Positions 7,620 to 45,371 of a stretch of 64,000 nt of DNA are shown here, piece after piece (position 1 is the first letter of the stretch; each line of letters opens with the position of its first letter). Origin of the DNA: Candidatus Enterousia sp. (GTDB lineage Bacteria; Pseudomonadota; Alphaproteobacteria; Rs-D84); the NCBI GenBank assembly GCA_045617905.1, contig JAZLJO010000005.1:18211-82210 (forward strand), given 5' to 3'. The notes beneath the pieces are model-generated. The model did not search any database and was not told where the DNA came from. It worked only from the letters and a program-made list of their open reading frames with translations. Position numbers and translations under genes: made by a program.

Positions 7620-10600
7620 TTATTTTGATACTAAATCAATCAAATTCGCATAATTGTCAACAACATCATATTTTATATTTCCATTACTAATTAATGCAAA
7701 ATGTTTGCGTGCGCAATCTATTTTTGCTTTTTCTATGGGACGCAAATCCAATGTTTTCATTGACCCTTTGGTTTCTGCTATGAAATATACATGTTTTACC
7801 GTCCCCTGCTTAAATGCAATTGCCCAATCTGGATTATAATGGCCAACCGGTGTTGTTATATAAAAACCCTTTGGCAATTTGGCATATACGACAACTTCGT
7901 CATTTGTTTCCAATGCATTTGCCATTTTCTTTTCCGTATCAGAATCTGCAATAACATAATTGTAAATATGATTGTTTGGTGTTGATACTGTATTATCTGA
8001 GGTTCCTTTTAAATCTGGGTCTGTAAACACATCTGTATCATATTCTTCATCCAACAAATTATATGTCACGTGTTCTATGATTGCAGTGGCCTTTTGTTCA
8101 TTAATCAAATTTACTGTTTTTGCAATAAAATCTTCGGGGTTTTGTTTAAATTGTGCGAATTTATCCGCCGATATCCCCATCAAAATTTTTGCAACACATT
8201 TGCGGGTCAACCCTGTTCCTTCGACAATTTTACCAATTAAATCGTATTTTAATTGTATTTCTGCGTTTTCTATATTTTCACGTTTCGTTTTTGGGTCATC
8301 AAATGCGGTTCCCTTTGCTAAATTATCAACAGAATCTATTTTTTGCATTGTCCCACGTGTTATAACGGCAACCAATTTTGTTACATTTAATTTATGGTCA
8401 ATGGCATTAATTGCATTTTTTACCAATTCATCTGTTTCAAATTCAACGGTGTATGCGGTTTTTTTATTGATATTTTTCCATAATTCTTGGAATTCTTTTT
8501 TATCTAAATTTACTTTATTCAATTTTACCGCGATTTTAGTTTTATTTGCATTACCAATATCCATTGGTTTGTAAATACTGCCCAAAACGTGAACGATATC
8601 TTCTTGTTTGTATTCTGGGGATAAAATCAATGTACCTGACGCTAAATCCGATTGATATTTTTCTGTTAAATGTCCGCGGTTATCAATATAACCATTACTC
8701 ATTAATCCAAATAATATATTTTGTGCCTCAACCGCCGATAATGTATGTTTTTCGCCATTTGCCAAATGAACAATTTGATTTTGGAATAAATTTAATGTTA
8801 CCTCACGCGGGCGGTCTTTTAATTCTTCGGCCATATCTTTTTGCAGGGCCAGAACAAAATCCTGATACGATTCTGATGCAATAACCGTTAACACATTAAT
8901 TTTATGCACATCATCCAAAACGGCGGAATCCATTCTTTCACCATTTTGATTTACACACAGACGTAATCCACGACCAATTTCTTGGCGTCTGGATATATTA
9001 TTATTACTGTTTTTTAATGTACATATTTGGAACACATTTGGATTATCCCATCCTTCGCGTAATGCGGAATGTGAAAATATAAAACGAACCGGTTCTGTAC
9101 GTGATAATAACCGTTCTTTATTTTTCATAATTAAATCATACGCCCTGATATCATCATCACCAACAGATGTTTCTTTACTGTTTTTAAAATTACCTTTTTT
9201 GTCTTTGGCAAAATATCCCTGATGTGATGTTTGGGCATTTGTGGCATCTAAAAAATTCTTGTATTCGGGCCAACAATCCAATTCTTGTAATTTTTCTGAT
9301 TTCAAGATTTCGTATTCTTGTTCAAACATCTGGGCGTATTTACCCGTTGATTTATCATCTGGGCGATAATTTTCAACATCGTCAATAAAGAATAACGATA
9401 ATACCTTAATCCCTTTATTAAATAATTCTTGTTCTTTATTCAAATGGCAACGAATTGTTTCACGTATTTGAATTCTGCGCAATTGATCTGCATTTACATC
9501 ACCAACAACATCACCGGTAAATATTTTTGTACCATTTTGAAATTCGATAAAATCTTGATCTGCACGAATATTGGTTATAACCCAACCATTTTTATATTCA
9601 TCCAAATGTCCCGATTTTTCATACAAATTATGTCCGACATCAACAGTTATCATTTTTTTATTTGGACTGCCATTGGCGGTTTTATAATCAATTTCTATGG
9701 TGGCGGTCGGGTTTTTATCTTTGAATGTATTTATTTTTGATAAATATACATACCCAGATGTTGCAGAATTACCGGATACAGAAACACCACGAACCTCTAT
9801 CTTTTTTACCAATTTTTGATTATATGCATCCAGTGCATCTAAACGATATACCATATTATATGGTGTTCTGTGGGTGGCAGAATATCTTAACACAAACAGT
9901 GGTTGAAACTGTTTTAACATATCTTTGGCAACCACGCCTTCCATTGATTGTGGTTCATCCAAAATTATAATTGGGTTTGTTTTTGCAATAACATCAATTG
10001 GTTTTCGCCCCTTGAACGAATCCAATGCCATATTGATTCTGCGGGCATCTTTGCCACGTGCGGCAAATGCCTGGACATTGATAATCATACAATTGATTGT
10101 GTTACTGGTGGCAAAATTTTCAACATCCCCCAAACGGGCCGAATTATAAATAAAATATCTGACCTTTTTACCATATTCTTGTTGGAAATGATCGGCGGTT
10201 ATCTGAAATGATTTATTGACCCCTTCACGAATTGCCACAGATGGAACAACAATTATGAACTTTGTCCAACCGTATCGTTTATTTAATTCATACATTGTTT
10301 TGATGTATGTATATGTTTTACCGGTTCCGGTTTCCATTTCAACGGTTAAATTTAATCCGTCCCCTTCTAATTCTGATGATGGTTTAATCCCGGCCTGTAT
10401 TTGCAAATTACGCACAGAATCCAACAAATCGTTTTTTTGTTTATACAATTGTTGATTTGCAAATGCATCCAACATCAACAAATCTTGGACACGTGCGTTA
10501 TTGCCCGGATCCAATGTATATTTAAATGGACGGCTGATTGGTTGACCGGCGAACACATCACATACCGCATTACAGGCATCGGCCTGAAATTGTTGGTGTT

Positions 10601-10625
10601 TAAACTGTAATTTCATTTCTGCCAT
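7620..10625 (-). CDS. res: Type III restriction enzyme Res subunit (SF2 helicase plus PD-ExK nuclease)
   Basis: 1001 aa. Motif I METGTGKTYTY, motif II IIILDEPQSM, helicase C-terminal block SALREGWDNPNVFQI, C-terminal nuclease NPDWAIAF...FIAETKG. Lies 18 bp downstream of mod. Confidence 0.9.
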   Translation of the reverse strand: MAEMKLQFKHQQFQADACNAVCDVFAGQPISRPFKYTLDPGNNARVQDLLMLDAFANQQLYKQKNDLLDSVRNLQIQAGIKPSSELEGDGLNLTVEMETGTGKTYTYIKTMYELNKRYGWTKFIIVVPSVAIREGVNKSFQITADHFQQEYGKKVRYFIYNSARLGDVENFATSNTINCMIINVQAFAARGKDARRINMALDSFKGRKPIDVIAKTNPIIILDEPQSMEGVVAKDMLKQFQPLFVLRYSATHRTPYNMVYRLDALDAYNQKLVKKIEVRGVSVSGNSATSGYVYLSKINTFKDKNPTATIEIDYKTANGSPNKKMITVDVGHNLYEKSGHLDEYKNGWVITNIRADQDFIEFQNGTKIFTGDVVGDVNADQLRRIQIRETIRCHLNKEQELFNKGIKVLSLFFIDDVENYRPDDKSTGKYAQMFEQEYEILKSEKLQELDCWPEYKNFLDATNAQTSHQGYFAKDKKGNFKNSKETSVGDDDIRAYDLIMKNKERLLSRTEPVRFIFSHSALREGWDNPNVFQICTLKNSNNNISRRQEIGRGLRLCVNQNGERMDSAVLDDVHKINVLTVIASESYQDFVLALQKDMAEELKDRPREVTLNLFQNQIVHLANGEKHTLSAVEAQNILFGLMSNGYIDNRGHLTEKYQSDLASGTLILSPEYKQEDIVHVLGSIYKPMDIGNANKTKIAVKLNKVNLDKKEFQELWKNINKKTAYTVEFETDELVKNAINAIDHKLNVTKLVAVITRGTMQKIDSVDNLAKGTAFDDPKTKRENIENAEIQLKYDLIGKIVEGTGLTRKCVAKILMGISADKFAQFKQNPEDFIAKTVNLINEQKATAIIEHVTYNLLDEEYDTDVFTDPDLKGTSDNTVSTPNNHIYNYVIADSDTEKKMANALETNDEVVVYAKLPKGFYITTPVGHYNPDWAIAFKQGTVKHVYFIAETKGSMKTLDLRPIEKAKIDCARKHFALISNGNIKYDVVDNYANLIDLVSK

Positions 10626-10643
10626 TGAATTGCCTCGTTAAAT

Positions 10644-12563
10644 TTATAATACGGTTATTTTTGTGTTTGGTGATATTGTTTTAAATATCTCTGTTACATT
10701 GATTTTACCCGGTGCATCGGCAAAGCATAAATCACGGAACACAACACGTAATGGTTTAATATTTGCAATTTCTTTGATAACAGATTCCGGTATATTTTGT
10801 TCAAAACATGCAACCAACGACGCATTATCAACATTAAAATATGTGATATTACCTGATTTTATATCACGCACATCCAAATCCAGTGTTAATCCCAAATCAA
10901 TCATAACCCCATATAATAAATCAAGCGGTGTGCGGTCTGATTTTATATTATCAACATTATCTAATAAACCCGTTTGGGTTGTGTTGGCGGGATTATAATA
11001 AACATCCTTCATATTGGTGTCATCCAATTTTAAAACCTTGAACCCAATATCCAAATCGGTCTTCCCGGTATCCGCAACAATTTTATCCCCAGCTCTTCTG
11101 ATTCTTTCTTTTGCTACCTCTGTAAGTTTATGTTCAACACCTAATTCATCACATAATGCTATGGCATTATTTATAGTATCTACTGTTGCACTTGTAGCTG
11201 TTCTTTTGTTTTTATCAAGATTTTCTGGCAATTGAATCATAATAAACCTTCTGTTTCCTCCATCTGTTGCATTTAGTCTAATAACAGCATCTGCAGTTGT
11301 AGAAGCCCCAGAAAAGAAATCCATAATCAATGCATCTGTTGTATTTGGTAACAAGTTTAATATAAACTTCAATAAAGAAATCGGTTTGGGATAATCAAAA
11401 ACTCTATTCACAAAATAATTTCCCAATTCTGCATTTGCAGACAAAACATCTCCCACTAAATCTGTTGGTATTATTTTTGTTGGTCTCAAACTAGTTTGTT
11501 GATATATTTTCTTATAGTATGGTATAAATGTAGCAGTCTTTATACACAAAAATACACCATTTTTTATTTCATTATCTAGATATTCTTGAGACCATTTAAA
11601 TTTACCAGATATAGTAAACTCATTTACTATGATTCCCCCTTGAATATTTAAATTATCATGTAAAATTACATCTCCTATATTACCAGCAGGATACATGCCA
11701 TCTGGCAAATTAGATTTTACATAACTCTTTGGAAATGATAATTTTCTTACACTATTGTTATTTTGAGTAAGAGAAGCTTCACCTTGGGGATCTTGCAACC
11801 TTTCAACAAGCTCTGGAATATTGTCCAAATTTTTAGCATACATTAGAATGTATTCTGCATTTTTTCTCACTAATTTTGACATGTTTGAAGGTCTAAAAAT
11901 ACTCTCCCATGTAAAACATTCTACAAAATTACTTTCCCCAAACACCTCATCACAAATTTTTTTCAAATTTGCCTGTTCATTATCATCAATTGATATAAAT
12001 ATAACCCCATCATCGGATAATAAATCACGGGCAACCTTTAACCGTGGGTATATCATCGAACACCAATTGGAATGGTATCTGCCATTGGATTCATCGTTTT
12101 TGAATAATCGTTCATTGGTATCAATATCACATTGCCCCTTTTGTTCCATATAATCTTTTTGACACATTGAAAAATCATCACAATATACAAAATCATTACC
12201 TGTGTTATACGGGGGGTCAATATAAATCATTTTAACTTTACCCAGATATGATTCCTGTAATAATTTTAATACATCCAGGTTGTCACCTTCGATATACAAA
12301 TTCTTGGTTGTATCCCAATTTTTTGATTCCGCCATGCACGGTCTAAGTGTTTTTCTGATTGGACTGGCCGCCCCCATTATTGCATCACGTTTACCGATCC
12401 ATGTGAAATTATATGATTCATTACCATCAACTAAATCGGGGGCTAATTCTTCTTTTAATCGTTCAAAATCAATTTTATCACCTTGGACTGCGGCCGGGCA
12501 CAGTTCTGCGATTTTTTTTAATACATTGTCCATTGGACGTGATTCCATTTTCAATTTATCCAT
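10644..12563 (-). CDS. mod: Type III DNA adenine methyltransferase Mod (beta-class N6/N4 MTase)
   Basis: 639 aa. Catalytic IYIDPPYNTGNDF precedes SAM-binding MDFFSGASTTADA. N-terminus ...IDFERLKEEL...YNFTWIGKRDA is typical of Type III Mod. Confidence 0.9.
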   Translation of the reverse strand: MDKLKMESRPMDNVLKKIAELCPAAVQGDKIDFERLKEELAPDLVDGNESYNFTWIGKRDAIMGAASPIRKTLRPCMAESKNWDTTKNLYIEGDNLDVLKLLQESYLGKVKMIYIDPPYNTGNDFVYCDDFSMCQKDYMEQKGQCDIDTNERLFKNDESNGRYHSNWCSMIYPRLKVARDLLSDDGVIFISIDDNEQANLKKICDEVFGESNFVECFTWESIFRPSNMSKLVRKNAEYILMYAKNLDNIPELVERLQDPQGEASLTQNNNSVRKLSFPKSYVKSNLPDGMYPAGNIGDVILHDNLNIQGGIIVNEFTISGKFKWSQEYLDNEIKNGVFLCIKTATFIPYYKKIYQQTSLRPTKIIPTDLVGDVLSANAELGNYFVNRVFDYPKPISLLKFILNLLPNTTDALIMDFFSGASTTADAVIRLNATDGGNRRFIMIQLPENLDKNKRTATSATVDTINNAIALCDELGVEHKLTEVAKERIRRAGDKIVADTGKTDLDIGFKVLKLDDTNMKDVYYNPANTTQTGLLDNVDNIKSDRTPLDLLYGVMIDLGLTLDLDVRDIKSGNITYFNVDNASLVACFEQNIPESVIKEIANIKPLRVVFRDLCFADAPGKINVTEIFKTISPNTKITVL

Positions 12564-26869: not shown

Positions 26870-27637
26870 TTATTTCGCGACATAACAATCCAGACCGTCA
26901 GATTTTGCATTGCGACAAAAACCATTTGCTAATTCTGACGTTTGGAATGCAACACGTAATCTGTGTGTTGTATTGCCATTTGATAAACGTGCCGCCAATA
27001 TTACGAATTGTTTATCTTGGAACAATCCGGCATGTGCCGAACGCATCTGACGCCCTGCATTTTCTGCTGCTGCGTGGGTGCTGTATGAACCAAACTGAAC
27101 ATACCAAGAACCATTTGATGCTTTAACCGTTTTCTGTGTTGTTGCAGTTTTTGTTGTTTTTACAACTGGTTTGGTTACAGTTTTTTCTGGGTTAAATGTA
27201 ACATTTTTACGTTCTTCGACGACACGGACTGGAACACCCGTATCTTCTGTTGTAACGACTGGTTTTGAAACAGTTTTTTCCTGTACAGTTTGTATATTTG
27301 TTTCAACTGCTTTGTTATCCACAGGTTTTGCTGGGCCTTTATCTGTCGCAACAGGTTCTGCCTCTTTATTTTCTGGCATCGGTTGAACTGCTGGCAAATT
27401 ATCCCCATCAATTACAACAGCCGGTGCATCCAAATCAACCTGCATAGAAGATGATGAATCACCACCAATTGTTCGAACAATAATATACGTTGCCAAAACA
27501 ATAACCCCCAAACCAACCCCCAACAATAACCATGGTTTTTTGGGGCGTGGTGTTGAAAATGGTGTTGCATCCGGCAACACATCCAAAGACGTATCGTCGT
27601 CCAAATCTAATAAATCTAAATTGTTATCTTCATTCAT
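26870..27637 (-). CDS. SPOR domain-containing membrane protein
   Basis: One TM helix, a low-complexity linker, and a C-terminal SPOR-like WYVQFGSYSTHAAAENAGRQM...RLRVAF. Confidence 0.75.
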   Translation of the reverse strand: MNEDNNLDLLDLDDDTSLDVLPDATPFSTPRPKKPWLLLGVGLGVIVLATYIIVRTIGGDSSSSMQVDLDAPAVVIDGDNLPAVQPMPENKEAEPVATDKGPAKPVDNKAVETNIQTVQEKTVSKPVVTTEDTGVPVRVVEERKNVTFNPEKTVTKPVVKTTKTATTQKTVKASNGSWYVQFGSYSTHAAAENAGRQMRSAHAGLFQDKQFVILAARLSNGNTTHRLRVAFQTSELANGFCRNAKSDGLDCYVAK

Positions 27638-29721: not shown

Positions 29722-29768
29722 AAAAAAAACCGCAACAGAATTCATACCCCCGCAGGGGTTGTAGTTGC
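29722..29768 (-). terminator. Terminator of the RHH-containing operon
   Basis: GCAAC...CCCCGCAGGGG...GTTGC nested hairpin, followed by T8 on the minus strand. Confidence 0.6.
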
Positions 29769-29830
29769 TGTAAAAATCAATAAATAATGTTTCATATTCG
29801 ACGGGTATTCTAAGAAATTTTTCACAAAAG

Positions 29831-30052
29831 TCAAAATATTATTTTTTTATCGATTGTATTTATGTTTTGCAAAATCCATACACGCAATGCTGATGACAAA
29901 TTTCGTTTACCACGCGTTTTATCAATTTCACAAATAATTGCCGCCACCGAAACACAACGCTGTAATGCGATTTCATGCAACACAGATATAAATTCCGGTT
30001 CTAATGAAATACTGGTTCGATGACCTGATAAAGATACAGATAATTTGTTCAT
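29831..30052 (-). CDS. Ribbon-helix-helix protein (RHH_4-type)
   Basis: SVSLSGHRTSISLEPEFISVLHEIA...NLSSALRVWIL matches the family pattern (G-H-x-T-S-x-x-L-E...NLSSA-x-R). Confidence 0.75.
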   Translation of the reverse strand: MNKLSVSLSGHRTSISLEPEFISVLHEIALQRCVSVAAIICEIDKTRGKRNLSSALRVWILQNINTIDKKIIF

Positions 30053-30058
30053 ATTTTT

Positions 30059-30490
30059 TTACTTTCCCAGTGCCAAACAATCCGTTACCACACGAAAAAC
30101 ATCATCATATTTACGCAACACATCAAATGTTACATTATCCAACATTTGATATGTACCAAATGCATCAAACGCAAATAAAAATAAATCATTGCGGCCAAAT
30201 ATGGTCAATCCATACGTTTTTTTTATCGATTTCATTTCTTGATTTATATCAACCAAACTAGGTACCGGAAATACCAGCCCGCGTTCAATTTGTTTCGGTC
30301 CAAAAATATACGCACTGCCAAAATTCATTCCACCTGTAACAGAATACAATTCTGAAATTGCATTTGGTAATATCGCCGCATCAATTTGTTGCAAAAACAA
30401 ATTAACATTAATTATATCTTGATGCGTCGCCGCCGGTGCAACAGACACCCCACGCGATTTCATTGTTAAAATAAATTCATCACATGTCAT
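30059..30490 (-). CDS. SMI1/KNR4 (SUKH)-like protein, putative immunity-type
   Basis: 143 aa. LPNAISELYSVTGGMNFGSAYIFG resembles the SUKH-1 LP..y..ly...NG...g...ifg core. By-eye call only. Confidence 0.45.
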   Translation of the reverse strand: MTCDEFILTMKSRGVSVAPAATHQDIINVNLFLQQIDAAILPNAISELYSVTGGMNFGSAYIFGPKQIERGLVFPVPSLVDINQEMKSIKKTYGLTIFGRNDLFLFAFDAFGTYQMLDNVTFDVLRKYDDVFRVVTDCLALGK

Positions 30491-30502
30491 TTTTTCATCA
30501 CC

Positions 30503-31000
30503 CTACATACCACGGGCCATATTCATGCCAATTTGAGTCATCCGATCTTCAGTTGAATTTCCACCATTTCCGCCGCCACCGACATGTGCTGATACATATA
30601 CCTTTTTTGCTGGATTCGGCATCCATATTGCATCATTACCCGTTTGTTCAATTATAAAACGATCTAAATTTTGCGAATTTGGGAACGTCCAGCACAAAAA
30701 CATATTATCTATATCAACCTCCCCCCCCCATATCAAGGGCACACGAAAACGTATTGATGTATTTTCCGGCAAATTTCGTCCCATTAATAAATCCATAAAC
30801 GCATCCTGTGATAAATTCATAAACGCCAACGTTTCTATAGAATCGTCCAACGAACACATAAACTGTCGTCGCGTTTCCCGATATCCAGAAAACCAATCAG
30901 ATGGCACATTTACAACATTGGGGGCCACCAAAACAATCGGCATATCGTCCATATGCATGCTTTTTAAACGTTGTTCTGCAAAATCTTGTGACCATTGCAT
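30503..31000 (-). CDS. Hypothetical protein with His-less colicin-DNase/HNH-like motif and Gly-rich tail
   Basis: 165 aa. VPLIWGGEVDIDNMFL resembles KPISQxGGVYDMDNI of E7/E9-type DNases, but the canonical His positions are R/F/N/F. Contains a G9 tract. Confidence 0.35.
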   Translation of the reverse strand: MQWSQDFAEQRLKSMHMDDMPIVLVAPNVVNVPSDWFSGYRETRRQFMCSLDDSIETLAFMNLSQDAFMDLLMGRNLPENTSIRFRVPLIWGGEVDIDNMFLCWTFPNSQNLDRFIIEQTGNDAIWMPNPAKKVYVSAHVGGGGNGGNSTEDRMTQIGMNMARGM

Positions 31001-31002
31001 AA

Positions 31003-31914
31003 TTATATCTTACCTATGTAATTTAATACCGTATCAATGTATTGCGAATATGCATCTAAATTTTCTGTATCTTCTGTAATCGTATTTTTGTGTTCGCCAA
31101 TGTAACTGGATAATTCGTCAAATGTATTAAACACCAAAACATCCGGTGCATGATTTCCAAAATCGGTTGATGCAACAACAAAACAATTTATATTTATCTG
31201 AACATCTTCCAGGGTATCTATGAATATATTTTGAAATTTATCTGCAATTTTTTTCACGGTTTCTGTATCTGTATCAACCGCACCTAACCAGAAAACCTCG
31301 TCCTGACCAATGGCAACGAATGGGGATACACCGGCAATTACCGGTGATTTTTTTACAATATAGCCCGCATTTTTAAATACTGTTTCAATTTCTGGGTATG
31401 TTCTAATAACGTTTTTTCTGGTTGTTGATAACACAGGCATTGGTTGGGGGGCAATATTATGTTGCACATTAACATTATTATGCACCATCATGCCAACGTT
31501 TGGACGTGGTGGTCGCAGTGCCGCAGATGGGGCACGTGTTGAAACAGAATTATCTATTTCATTTTTTTTAATTATTGGTTCTTTATCTTTTTTGATATTT
31601 TCTTTTTCGGCTTCTTTGCCCGCCATACCAATTGCTGATCGCGAAACTGGTGATGCCGCCATATGTATATAACGACGGCGTGGTGCCAATAAAACATATA
31701 ATCCAGAAAATGTTATAACAAACACCCCAACCAATGATATATAAAACATCGGTTGTATCTGAACCTGGGTTGCCTGTAAGGCGGCCAAATATTCCCAATG
31801 TGATACAGATAATATATTAAAACCGAATTTGATGTTAAACCAAAAACATGTTCCCAACGTAACCGCCAGCAACCATAAAATACAAATTAAAAAATAATCT
31901 ATTCTTTTTTTCAT
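31003..31914 (-). CDS. Membrane protein (2 N-terminal TM helices, Pro-rich linker, alpha/beta C-terminal domain), unknown function
   Basis: 303-aa ORF. TM segments YFLICILWLLAVTLGTCFWF and MFYISLVGVFVITFSGLYVLL. 2-nt gap to the next gene. Confidence 0.6.
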   Translation of the reverse strand: MKKRIDYFLICILWLLAVTLGTCFWFNIKFGFNILSVSHWEYLAALQATQVQIQPMFYISLVGVFVITFSGLYVLLAPRRRYIHMAASPVSRSAIGMAGKEAEKENIKKDKEPIIKKNEIDNSVSTRAPSAALRPPRPNVGMMVHNNVNVQHNIAPQPMPVLSTTRKNVIRTYPEIETVFKNAGYIVKKSPVIAGVSPFVAIGQDEVFWLGAVDTDTETVKKIADKFQNIFIDTLEDVQININCFVVASTDFGNHAPDVLVFNTFDELSSYIGEHKNTITEDTENLDAYSQYIDTVLNYIGKI

Positions 31915-31957
31915 TTCGTTTTGATTATATCATATTTATGATAAAGTAAAAAGTGCA

Positions 31958-32662
31958 ATGATTATATCAAACGACATTATTTATCAAATACGTAATAATA
32001 TTTCTTTATGGTGCGATGATCTGATTGACGGGCCGGATTTGGCCGCATGTACAGAATTTGCCACACGTGAAAATATAGACATCATATCTGTTTCCCCTGA
32101 CCGGGTATCTATGTTATGGCCATGGGTGGAAAAAACAAATATAAAGATTGCCACCAGATTATATTTATCTTCAAAATCAGATTGTAATACATCTGATCGT
32201 ATTACAGATATTGCCAAACGTATAAACGCCGTATTTAAATTTGGTGCGGACATTGTACAGGTTTTCATAAAAATGTCTGATTTTGATGAATTTATCACAA
32301 AAATTCGTCCTGTATACGATGATTTGTTTTTTAATCACAGATTATCAGTTGCCGTTGATATTAATGAAATCGAATCCGTTGATTGGGAAAATTTTTATCA
32401 ACGCATAAAAAACATTGGTGCGCAATCATTATTATTTAAATTACCCACAAACACTGGGAACAATTCTGATTTTATTGGTCGAATATATGCAGCATTAGAT
32501 AATTATCAACCAACATTTAATTTTGATATACATGCGCTAATAAATGGTAATTTAATCCAGGCCGAACAATTGTTTCGTTTAACCGAACTAATTCAACCAC
32601 AAATTTTACCAAATACGCGTTTTTTTATAAATTGGCAAACTGAAATGTTCAAATTAAGTTAA
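31958..32662 (+). CDS. Hypothetical protein (weak DeoC-like TIM-barrel resemblance)
   Basis: 234-aa ORF divergent from the operon above. ...IDIISVSPDRV...IKIATRLYL...FGADIVQVFI is loosely aldolase-like. Its stop overlaps the trmB stop. Confidence 0.4.
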   Translation: MIISNDIIYQIRNNISLWCDDLIDGPDLAACTEFATRENIDIISVSPDRVSMLWPWVEKTNIKIATRLYLSSKSDCNTSDRITDIAKRINAVFKFGADIVQVFIKMSDFDEFITKIRPVYDDLFFNHRLSVAVDINEIESVDWENFYQRIKNIGAQSLLFKLPTNTGNNSDFIGRIYAALDNYQPTFNFDIHALINGNLIQAEQLFRLTELIQPQILPNTRFFINWQTEMFKLS

Positions 32663-43382: not shown

Positions 43383-45371
43383 TTACATTGATTTATCATT
43401 TTGTTTGATACCATAAACACAACAGATTGAAAATAATAATATTATAATCATCCAACCGTTTCGACCAATGTATCTGTATAATGTAAAATGTTCACCGTGT
43501 GATACACCGTCTAATATTCCTGTTTGCCCTACTTCCAAATATGATGTAATGTTTCCCGCGGCATCAATAAATGCACTGATTCCAGAATAATTTGCACGGA
43601 TAATTGGAATTCCTGATTCAATTGCATAACGCCGAACCATATCCAAGTGTTGATACGTTCCGGGGGTTTTACCAAACCATGTATCATTTGTTATATTTAT
43701 TATGGCATTTATTTTTTGATTATTTTGCTTTATCAATGCATCTGAAAAAATTATTTCATAACATATTGCAGGTGCAATAACAAATTTTCCCGATGTTAAA
43801 TTAATATCTATTGTTTCCGGCCCACTTCCCCGCCCTAATTCAGTTGGTGATGGCATAATCCCAAATGGGCTGTATTCACCAAATGGGACCAAATGTGATT
43901 TACTGTATTTATGCCAAATTATACCATCCGGGGTGGCAAAAATCATAGAATTATACACACGACCATTTGAATACGTTAACGCACCTGTAATTATATTTTT
44001 TCCCAGCATTTTTGCCAATTGCATTTTATTATCTGTGACAATAAACGGGTATGTTGTTTCGGGATACACGATTAAATCAGCCGTTTTTGTACCATTATCA
44101 CGCGCCAATAAATACATTTGTTTTATATTTTTTTCGGCCATTGCAATTGCATCTGCACGTCCATTTGGCATTTTTTGTGATTGTGAACGTGCGGGTTGAA
44201 CAATTCGAATAACCGGTTGATTAATATTTTCTTTTATAGAATTTGCCATACTGATATTTATACGTCCACCAATTATTCCAATAAATCCCAACAACACGAA
44301 AATCAAAACCGGAATCCATGTTCGTTTTTTACCACGATAACGCAACAATTCAACAATTGCCGACACCACACCAATTATGATAAACGTTAACCCTAATGCC
44401 CCCCAAATCGACATTGAATTTGACAACGTTTTCCATGGCATTACGATATTTGCAATCGGATTCCAAGGAAAACCCGTTAAAAACCATTCACGCAACCATA
44501 AAACAAATGTCCATGTGGCGGCAAAAATGAATGGACTGGATAAAATACTGGATCGAAAACGTATAAACAATGCAAATGGTGTCGAAAATACTATCACACC
44601 AGCCAACCCAATACCAATTAGACCTGGAATTGTCCAGATGGCAAATTGTTCAGTCAATTCAGGAACAACATAAATTGAATGCAATACCCACCAAAACATT
44701 GCAATTGCATACATTGCACCAAATGGTGCCGTGTACATTAAACCACGCCAAAAACCAATACGATTTTGTATACGTGTTGTTAACCAATATGCCCCCCCAA
44801 TTCCCAATAACGCTGTTTCCCAAACATAAAATGGTGCGAAACCAATTGCAGCAACACACCCCAATATACCATATAACAAATATTGTGTTAATCTGTGTTC
44901 ACAAATGTGTTTTGTAATAGAAAAAAATCTTTTAAAAAAACCGCCATCATCATATGGATTTTTATAGCCTAATTTTTTTAATAATTTTGTTTCTAATGCC
45001 TGCATTATTTCGGCTTCGTCATCTTTAATATGATCGTATCCCTGCAAATGCAACATTCCATGAATTACCATATGTGCAACATGTTCTTCAACCGATATTC
45101 CCAATGCAACTGCTTCGCGTTTAACAGTGTCCAATGATATATAGATATCACCTAACAACAAATCATCCCCCAATTCAAATGACAATACATTTGTCGGTTT
45201 ATCGATATTTCTATATTCACGATTTAACACGTGGATTTCGGAATCTGATGTTAACGTTATCGACACTTCTGATTCTTTGTATACGGCAGAAACCGCCATA
45301 CAGGCGATTTTTTCAAAATCTATTTTATATTTTTTCCACCGTTTGTCATTGTAATTTACATATACCTGCAT
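43383..45371 (-). CDS. lnt: Fusion protein: YbeY endoribonuclease domain plus apolipoprotein N-acyltransferase (Lnt)
   Basis: N-terminal 150 aa carry the YbeY motif HGMLHLQGYDH. The remainder is multi-TM plus a CN-hydrolase domain (LIVYPETT..., ICYEIIF). A single uninterrupted 662-aa ORF. Confidence 0.8.
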   Translation of the reverse strand: MQVYVNYNDKRWKKYKIDFEKIACMAVSAVYKESEVSITLTSDSEIHVLNREYRNIDKPTNVLSFELGDDLLLGDIYISLDTVKREAVALGISVEEHVAHMVIHGMLHLQGYDHIKDDEAEIMQALETKLLKKLGYKNPYDDGGFFKRFFSITKHICEHRLTQYLLYGILGCVAAIGFAPFYVWETALLGIGGAYWLTTRIQNRIGFWRGLMYTAPFGAMYAIAMFWWVLHSIYVVPELTEQFAIWTIPGLIGIGLAGVIVFSTPFALFIRFRSSILSSPFIFAATWTFVLWLREWFLTGFPWNPIANIVMPWKTLSNSMSIWGALGLTFIIIGVVSAIVELLRYRGKKRTWIPVLIFVLLGFIGIIGGRINISMANSIKENINQPVIRIVQPARSQSQKMPNGRADAIAMAEKNIKQMYLLARDNGTKTADLIVYPETTYPFIVTDNKMQLAKMLGKNIITGALTYSNGRVYNSMIFATPDGIIWHKYSKSHLVPFGEYSPFGIMPSPTELGRGSGPETIDINLTSGKFVIAPAICYEIIFSDALIKQNNQKINAIINITNDTWFGKTPGTYQHLDMVRRYAIESGIPIIRANYSGISAFIDAAGNITSYLEVGQTGILDGVSHGEHFTLYRYIGRNGWMIIILLFSICCVYGIKQNDKSM

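Follow-up and report, generated by a model that had tools for sequence, protein, structure and literature searches.

A conserved four-gene operon of Candidatus Enterousia encodes a predicted histidine-less derivative of a YhhZ-type HNH toxin domain and its former immunity partner

The DNA studied here, called the window below, is a 64-kb stretch from Candidatus Enterousia sp. (order Rs-D84; assembly GCA_045617905.1, contig JAZLJO010000005.1, positions 18,211-82,210 of the forward strand). It contains an operon of four genes, numbered 1 to 4 in the direction of transcription, for a membrane protein, a small protein of predicted HNH nuclease ancestry, a predicted relative of the YrhA immunity proteins and a ribbon-helix-helix (RHH) protein (Table 1). 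The initial annotation, made from the sequence alone, had described four tightly packed minus-strand genes, and both the coordinates and the intergenic gaps, which are 2, 12 and 6 nt according to the open reading frames (ORFs), were reproduced.

Table 1. Features of the four-gene operon and its immediate surroundings in the window
Feature	Position	Strand	Basis
Gene 1, predicted inner-membrane protein, 303 aa	31003..31914	-	ORF, alignments, AlphaFold model
Gene 2, predicted His-less derivative of a YhhZ-type HNH toxin domain, 165 aa	30503..31000	-	ORF, profiles, AlphaFold
Gene 3, predicted divergent YrhA-family (SUKH-like) protein, 143 aa	30059..30490	-	ORF, NCBIfam, profiles
Gene 4, RHH_4 ribbon-helix-helix DNA-binding protein, 73 aa	29831..30052	-	Pfam PF13467
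Promoter region shared by gene 1 and the divergent gene, 43 nt	31915..31957	-	Consensus, 73 distinct sequences
Hairpin + U8 3' of gene 4, plausible intrinsic terminator	29722..29770	-	Sequence, fold
Divergently transcribed gene, 234 aa, no family match	31958..32662	+	Kept in 82/85 loci

Genomes of the Rs-D84/Enterousia group are about 0.75-1.0 Mb in size (PMC12306168). When one genome per species was scanned, 176 genomes were found to encode a relative of gene 2, and the best 80 of these 176 were metagenome-assembled genomes labelled Candidatus Enterousia, Alphaproteobacteria or Rickettsiales. The relatives in Enterousia come from gut metagenomes, are about 167 aa long and share 52-76% identity with gene 2. 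Synteny was counted by tblastn with the window proteins in 85 fetched loci. The four genes were adjacent and in the order 1-2-3-4 in 84 of the 85, exceptions being found at contig ends. Gene 3 lay directly 3' of gene 2 in all 85 loci, a gene 1 homologue stood upstream of gene 2 in 84, and gene 4 followed gene 3 likewise in 84. Such an arrangement is far beyond chance. The surroundings were kept as well, with the divergent 234-aa gene present in 82 loci, trmB in 78 and gltX in 74.

Median identities to the window proteins, calculated for the best 80 loci of the genome scan, were 38% for gene 1, 57% for gene 2, 51% for gene 3 and 62% for gene 4, compared with 66% for trmB and 73% for gltX. By these values the operon evolves about as slowly as trmB. 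In all relatives that were examined it is present in one copy and at a fixed site, with trmB/gltX on one side and further housekeeping genes on the other. The operon is a vertically inherited core operon of Candidatus Enterousia/Rs-D84 and does not form part of an island. The co-location in relatives that the initial annotation had proposed as a check was found in 84/85 loci, whereas the association with defence islands was not, the flanks consisting of housekeeping genes. The operon also occurs, together with its usual trmB/gltX neighbours, in records titled 'uncultured Muribaculaceae bacterium' or 'Bacteroides fragilis' (L025, OZ246409.1; L052, CAZJGX010000010.1; L078, CAVGNU010000003.1); these bins look mislabelled or contaminated.

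The translation of gene 2 contains VPLIWGGEVDIDNMFLCWTFPNSQN and, as noted from the start, the Gly-rich tail HVGGGGNGGN. In Pfam, no HNH-family match was obtained at E-values up to 1 and the protein scored below the Pfam HNH gathering score, NCBIfam gave nothing, and neither the single sequence nor profiles gave anything significant against the PDB sequences. The PDB sequence searches also covered genes 3 and 4, the 234-aa neighbour and the family profiles, likewise with no significant match; a cytochrome b5 match was rejected as a His-tag artefact. The AlphaFold model (pLDDT 86) contains a beta-beta-alpha unit with strands at residues 81-85 and 100-104 and a helix at residues 105-117, followed by a tail that is disordered from about residue 142. 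The top Foldseek matches of this model were mostly HNH domains (Cas8-HNH, ZRANB3, Gme HNH), all of them non-significant (best E 0.42).

The evidence for the ancestry of gene 2 comes from more distant relatives. A profile search of 1.8 billion representatives returned 83 proteins, including longer distant relatives of gene 2, and the distant relatives considered below belong to 44 metagenome loci. In a tblastn search, the relative from locus L093 matched genes annotated as 'HNH endonuclease' on 458 enterobacterial plasmids, with about 33-34% identity and E-values of about 1e-10 to 3e-11 among the matches listed. Conjugative plasmids make up 433 of the 458; the one studied closely is of the IncHI2 type and encodes an HNH protein that passes the Pfam HNH model. 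A profile built from Enterousia sequences only (A1) aligned to this plasmid protein with an hhalign probability of 76% (E 2.4e-5), and the Enterousia-only hidden Markov model (HMM) matched the plasmid protein with 28 bits. With the profiles built from the distant group and from the family as a whole, matches of 60-77 bits were obtained both to the toxin domain at the C-terminus of E. coli YhhZ (residues 245-387) and to the plasmid HNH proteins (HMM A4, 60-70 bits; HMM A6, 68-77 bits), and the homology between gene 2 and the toxin domain spans about 130 residues. These profile matches establish genuine homology between gene 2 and the DNase toxin domain of YhhZ-type HNH proteins. The likeness to a His-less nuclease of the HNH/His-Me finger kind, which had been recognised from the sequence, was borne out by profile homology, but its assignment to the colicin E7/E9 type was not, as the nearest relatives are YhhZ-type HNH domains. 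A colicin E7/E9-type DNase had been considered as a candidate and was rejected, with no match in Pfam or the PDB and no colicin among the Foldseek matches shown.

On IncHI2-type conjugative plasmids (L130 6845-7936, NZ_CP058672.1, and 457 others) the genes for the HNH domain of the YhhZ C-terminus and for YrhA are orphans that directly adjoin the transfer genes trhH and traG-N. The Kosakonia HNH protein carries a different N-terminus of 150 aa.

In the alignment, VHHKIP..GG..N..PYH of the toxin corresponds to IRFRVP..GG..N99..FPNS of gene 2, so that the His-His pair of the toxin falls on R84-F85 and the later His on S109. Among 82 distinct Enterousia sequences, 81 have Arg at position 84 and 81 a hydrophobic residue at position 85, where His never occurs, and the general-base His is missing from all 82. 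N99, G92 and G93 of the HNH motif and the GG turn are kept in all 82 sequences, D113 and Q119 are invariant, and the former active-site region as a whole (R84, R86, N99, D113, Q119) is almost invariant. According to this alignment, the general base and metal ligand formed by the His-His pair are gone from gene 2, as is the later His. The protein has gained a conserved and disordered tail, GGxGGNATxDR, which is absent from YhhZ and from the plasmid HNH proteins and present in all distant relatives; G146, G147, N148, D152 and R153 of the tail are invariant among the 82 sequences, and H139 also belongs to the conserved part. Gene 2 is probably not a nuclease.

Residues 131-165 of gene 2 (window 30503-30610), with the pattern VY.P.H..GGGDGGNAT.DRLSQ.A, resemble the C-terminus of RNase H (H..GGNE..D.L), including an equal N-D spacing. 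With a HMMER E-value of about 1 against HIV-1 RNase H chains, this likeness was taken as probable chance.

Gene 3 matched the NCBIfam model NF038335 (YrhA) with E 4e-9 and 36.5 bits, which is below the cut-off of 55 bits. A gene 3 profile found the protein encoded directly after every distant gene 2 relative, with E-values down to 1.6e-12, and these proteins pass the YrhA cut-off with 56-77 bits, compared with 124 bits for the plasmid YrhA. A direct hhalign comparison of the gene 3 profile with the single plasmid YrhA sequence gave a probability of 0.1 and thus no direct link. The assignment to YrhA is therefore drawn from the NCBIfam score and the intermediates in the distant loci. The gene order agrees: on the IncHI2 plasmid a gene annotated as YrhA family protein starts 10 nt after the HNH gene, and in E. 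coli K-12 yhhZ is followed by yrhA, the latter disrupted by IS1. Taken at the level of sequence, gene 3 is a divergent YrhA-family protein and the former immunity partner of gene 2.

Gene 3 also likely belongs to the SUKH superfamily. Sub-threshold matches to SMI1_KNR4 were obtained for 5 of 22 homologues (best E 3.3e-4), and the gene 3-like proteins of the distant loci gave sub-threshold matches to SUKH_6 (0.0023) and SUKH_5 (0.038). The top PDB match of the gene 3 family, 2icg, which we take to be an SMI1/KNR4-family structure, was non-significant (E 0.39). The initial proposal of a SUKH-like partner of nuclease toxins agrees with the YrhA assignment. We treat genes 2 and 3 as derived relatives and not as members of the two families, because gene 2 fails on catalytic features and the Pfam threshold and gene 3 on the YrhA cut-off.

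This ancestry in a genuine toxin-immunity pair raises the question of whether the operon is still an active toxin-immunity or toxin-antitoxin (TA) addiction module. In that case gene 2 would be toxic without the His residues, by metal catalysis through D113, N99 and Arg or by tight binding of nucleic acid; gene 3 would neutralise it, gene 4 would autoregulate the operon like an RHH protein of TA systems, and gene 1 would couple the release of the toxin to a membrane signal. Besides the ancestry, the immunity-type gene directly downstream in every group of relatives, the former active-site residues as the best conserved part of gene 2, and an RHH gene with a palindromic operator, as is typical of TA loci, are in favour of this explanation. 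Loci of TA systems and polymorphic toxins tend to be mobile and patchily distributed, whereas this operon is a single-copy, fixed core locus with housekeeping-like conservation in more than 80 species. Unlike in polymorphic toxin-immunity systems, gene 2 is a stand-alone protein of 165 aa and the locus is constant (84/85, median identity 57%). Additionally, the general-base His is absent throughout (82/82), no delivery domain is present, and gene 2 of the window is acidic (isoelectric point, pI, 4.7), unlike a DNA-binding toxin. We consider an active toxin unlikely.

Gene 1 consists of a first transmembrane (TM) helix, a conserved loop (FGFNIFSxxHWxYLAxLQA), a second TM helix, a basic, Pro-rich and disordered linker with an invariant RPP, and an alpha/beta domain. 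The AlphaFold model places helices at residues 2-30 and 55-76, disorder at 82-169 and the alpha/beta domain at 174-302 (pLDDT about 80), and agrees with the two TM helices, linker and alpha/beta C-terminal domain first read from the sequence. By the positive-inside rule, both termini would be cytoplasmic. Foldseek gave non-significant matches for gene 1 (best E 0.057), but the weak top matches were mostly PD-(D/E)xK nucleases, including EndoMS, Cap4, cap-snatching endonucleases, EcoO109I and Vsr. The conserved columns of the gene 1 alignment contain no canonical D...(D/E)xK motif. Thus, the structure comparisons of the models of genes 1 and 2, which had been suggested at the outset, were enriched in weak HNH and PD-(D/E)xK matches, none of which reached significance.

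The combination of nuclease-derived folds with a membrane protein in one operon, and a type III restriction-modification (R-M) system about 17 kb away, might point to a new anti-phage or anti-plasmid system, in which gene 1 as a membrane sensor would activate the nuclease-like gene 2 and gene 3 would restrain it. Against PADLOC-DB 2.0, no match was obtained for genes 1-4, the 234-aa neighbour or the gene 1-, gene 2- and gene 3-like proteins of the distant loci. The flanks are housekeeping genes without a defence island, inheritance is universal, syntenic and vertical, and catalytic residues are absent from both nuclease-like domains. A defence function thus appears very improbable. Both the active-toxin and the defence explanation are weakened because the distribution is universal and syntenic and evolution slow. 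For the same reasons, and with no PADLOC match and the catalytic residues missing, the toxin-immunity or defence cassette favoured in the initial annotation was not upheld; the alternative it had also named, a domesticated and non-nucleolytic function, is the better-supported reading.

Gene 4 was recognised by Pfam RHH_4 (PF13467) with 73.4 bits (cut-off 25; E 1.6e-20; residues 3-63), as had been read from the sequence, and has a pI of 9.6. Matches of gene 4 to designed-repeat entries of the PDB were spurious. Except through this RHH domain, the four proteins have no membership in any curated family. The 43 nt that separate gene 1 from the divergent gene form a region that hardly varies: in 73 distinct sequences the consensus CTTTTTAcTTTAtCAtAAATATGaTAcAAT is followed by 8-10 nt and the ATG. 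It contains an extended -10 promoter, TGnTAYAAT, 8-10 nt 5' of the gene 1 ATG, and the leader of gene 1 would therefore be very short. A palindrome, TATCA-N6-TGATA, lies at 31928-31944; its inverted repeat is kept in 67/73 sequences, and the 17-mer occurs once in the 64-kb window. We infer that TATCA-N6-TGATA is a candidate operator for the RHH protein encoded by gene 4.

In L045, L056 and L079 the interval between gene 1 and the divergent gene is longer (117, 66 and 166 nt, respectively, versus about 43). L045 and L056 keep the palindrome, and L079 has lost most of the consensus.

In its small RHH protein, its palindrome overlapping the promoter and its tightly coupled small genes, the operon resembles RHH type II TA operons. 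Unlike in these, the RHH protein is encoded by a separate fourth gene and lacks a toxin-binding extension, and the module is core and not patchy. The divergent 234-aa gene, which gave no match in Pfam, NCBIfam, PADLOC or the PDB, may belong to the module. Downstream of gene 4, the hairpin with U8 makes a terminator plausible. With dG -14.7 kcal/mol the hairpin reached a z-score of only -1.2 against shuffled sequences, and the consensus terminator scan did not call it, so that the operon's own terminator, claimed initially, was confirmed in part only. The sequencing runs found were DNA runs with a low share of words, and no RNA run was among them.

In the distant loci, wherever enough sequence was available, a gene 2-like gene was followed by a gene 3-like gene, the two being a few nt apart or overlapping. 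In the four loci checked for it (L088, L093, L097 and L118; 4/4), the gene 2-like gene came directly after a gene for a VirD4/TraG-type coupling protein (type IV coupling protein, T4CP), which matched Pfam T4SS-DNA_transf with E-values of about 1e-55 to 1e-56. Proteins with the architecture and the N-terminal motif of gene 1 are encoded 1-2 genes upstream of the T4CP in distant loci. Thus, in sister lineages the gene 2/gene 3 pair is linked to a T4CP. Neither this VirD4-type link nor the conserved operator-like palindrome was within sight of the initial annotation. The distant loci are chromosomal, with uvrB, fadL, tspO, dacC and ABC transporter genes in their flanks, and the labels of their hosts, which are gut Alphaproteobacteria, read Acetobacter sp. 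CAG:977, Ca. Scatocola and Azospirillum sp. Within 6 kb of the T4CPs in the distant loci, neither virB nor relaxase genes were present. The T4CP of the distant loci gave one weak PADLOC match, mad8 (E 1.4e-4). The distant gene 2 group retains a single His from the HH pair, plus two that come later, and lacks the canonical general base. A more divergent lineage, L005, has genes 1, 2, 3 and RHH_4 without a T4CP, as in the window.

The VirD4-type proteins of L093 (3101-5443) and L088 (3568-5964) end in an acidic tail of about 60-70 residues, mostly D/E, and the gene 2-like proteins adjoining them carry a basic, Pro/Gln-rich N-terminal extension that starts with MWDWS.

Signals for type IV secretion systems (T4SS) are usually C-terminal and unstructured. 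Gene 2 might accordingly be a T4SS effector that is recognised by the VirD4-type protein through its disordered C-terminal tail and exported to partner or competitor cells, with gene 3 as chaperone or immunity protein and gene 1 as membrane receptor. The position of the pair directly after, and sometimes overlapping, the VirD4-type gene in sister lineages is consistent with this, as are the restriction of the tail to the T4CP-linked and Enterousia groups and its disorder in the model. On the other hand, no T4CP or VirB gene is present in the window or in the fetched Enterousia loci, VirB genes are likewise lacking within 6 kb of the T4CPs of the distant loci, the strong sequence conservation would be unusual for an exported effector, and the catalytic residues are missing. 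We regard export of gene 2 as quite improbable. The absence of catalytic residues weakens this explanation as well as the active toxin and the defence system.

The explanation that we consider best, and hold with about even confidence, is that the operon is a domesticated core operon derived from a toxin and its immunity protein, which is non-nucleolytic, acts with gene 1 as a membrane adaptor and is autoregulated by the RHH protein. Gene 2 would no longer cut DNA but would stay bound to gene 3 in a tight heterodimer with an adaptor or switch function at the inner membrane, and both would act together with the cytoplasmic domain of gene 1, which may have a nuclease fold without catalytic activity. 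The ancestral role was probably to assist or gate a VirD4-type ATPase, because the trio flanks such an ATPase in sister gut Alphaproteobacteria, with the tail of gene 2 as the probable docking peptide. The Enterousia operon, perhaps what is left of a T4CP accessory complex, no longer includes the ATPase gene. By acting on the conserved palindrome, which overlaps the -10 element, gene 4 would repress the operon.

Several points weigh against domestication of this kind. No T4CP is encoded in the 64-kb window, nor was one found in the 85 Enterousia loci fetched. Where the active site used to be, gene 2 still has conserved Arg, Asn and Asp residues, which could support a new catalytic chemistry. 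The pI of the gene 2 core ranges from 4.6 to 10.1 across the family, so that a common ligand is not obvious. The fold calls for the predicted core of gene 2 and the predicted domain of gene 1 are each non-significant when taken alone, with best Foldseek E-values of 0.42 and 0.057, respectively.

The closest known systems are YhhZ/YrhA, the Hcp-ET1/ETi1 effector-immunity pairs of type VI secretion and the orphan HNH + YrhA cassettes of IncHI2 plasmids. The His-Me finger classification (PMC5714182) treats YhhZ as an HNH effector of type VI secretion that is fused to Hcp, and assigns the YhhZ type to group 32. Hcp-ET1 proteins of the YhhZ kind degrade target DNA (PMC6099711). As in YhhZ/YrhA, gene 2 is a homologue of the toxin domain, a YrhA-family gene follows directly downstream, and the HNH motif retains its GG and Asn. 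Unlike in YhhZ/YrhA, R84, F85 and S109 of gene 2 replace the His residues, an Hcp or other delivery domain is lacking and a tail has been added; furthermore, the operon includes a protein with two TM helices and an RHH_4 protein, and it is core, syntenic and vertically inherited instead of mobile and polymorphic.

Dead His-Me fingers have been recruited for binding in Smad MH1 and in the nuclease-like domain of ENPP1-3/autotaxin (groups 16 and 21; PMC5714182). Like these, gene 2 has a scaffold, predicted to be beta-beta-alpha-Me, that lacks the catalytic His and is still conserved, which implies a role in binding. Smad MH1 and ENPP are, however, unrelated eukaryotic families, and none is paired with a former immunity protein. 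Among the accessory subunits of type IV coupling proteins are DotM, DotN, IcmS and IcmW, which accompany Legionella DotL. By analogy, the sister lineages encode a membrane protein with N-terminal TM helices and small soluble proteins beside the T4CP; no match to DotM, DotN or IcmSW was seen in sequence or fold, however, and the Enterousia operon is without a T4CP. No description was found of the His-less gene 2 subfamily, its tail, the T4CP linkage or the four-gene operon, and the sources call the proteins hypothetical.

Carried further, genes 1-3 could form the conserved centre of an inner-membrane machine, so far undescribed, in which dead HNH and PD-(D/E)xK-like folds are combined with a former immunity protein. 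It would work with a stand-alone VirD4-type ATPase in RF32-type gut Alphaproteobacteria, and in Enterousia it would be an indispensable, autoregulated part of the exchange of DNA or protein with partner cells. We offer this extension as doubtful.

Toxin-immunity pairs are normally mobile, fast-evolving weapons. The operon is a clear candidate case for the domestication of such a weapon into a housekeeping function, kept at one chromosomal site in a lineage that discarded most of its genome. It also points to uncharacterised partners of VirD4-type coupling ATPases in gut Alphaproteobacteria. Once worked out, the role of the four proteins would annotate a core function in widespread uncultured gut bacteria.

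In the window, thrS is the downstream neighbour of the operon, and the divergent 234-aa gene, trmB, gltX and a HlyIII gene lie upstream. The other window genes are housekeeping genes (RecJ, PBP2, FtsK, MutL and others), together with the one type III R-M system. The latter pair (7620-12563, minus strand), the sole defence-type locus seen in the window, consists of a 1001-aa Res subunit, which carries an endonuclease domain at its C-terminus, and a 639-aa N6/N4 methylase. The protein encoded at 26870-27637 (minus strand), 255 aa long, combines a single TM helix and a low-complexity linker with a SPOR domain at the C-terminus, and weakly matched a Caulobacter-type FtsN model. A single ORF of 662 aa at 43383-45371 (minus strand) encodes the endoribonuclease YbeY fused to apolipoprotein N-acyltransferase (LNT_N + CN_hydrolase), an unusual fusion that joins an rRNA-maturation enzyme to a lipoprotein-maturation enzyme; it was also found in two other Enterousia contigs (L001, 7098-9113; L003, 9539-11551).

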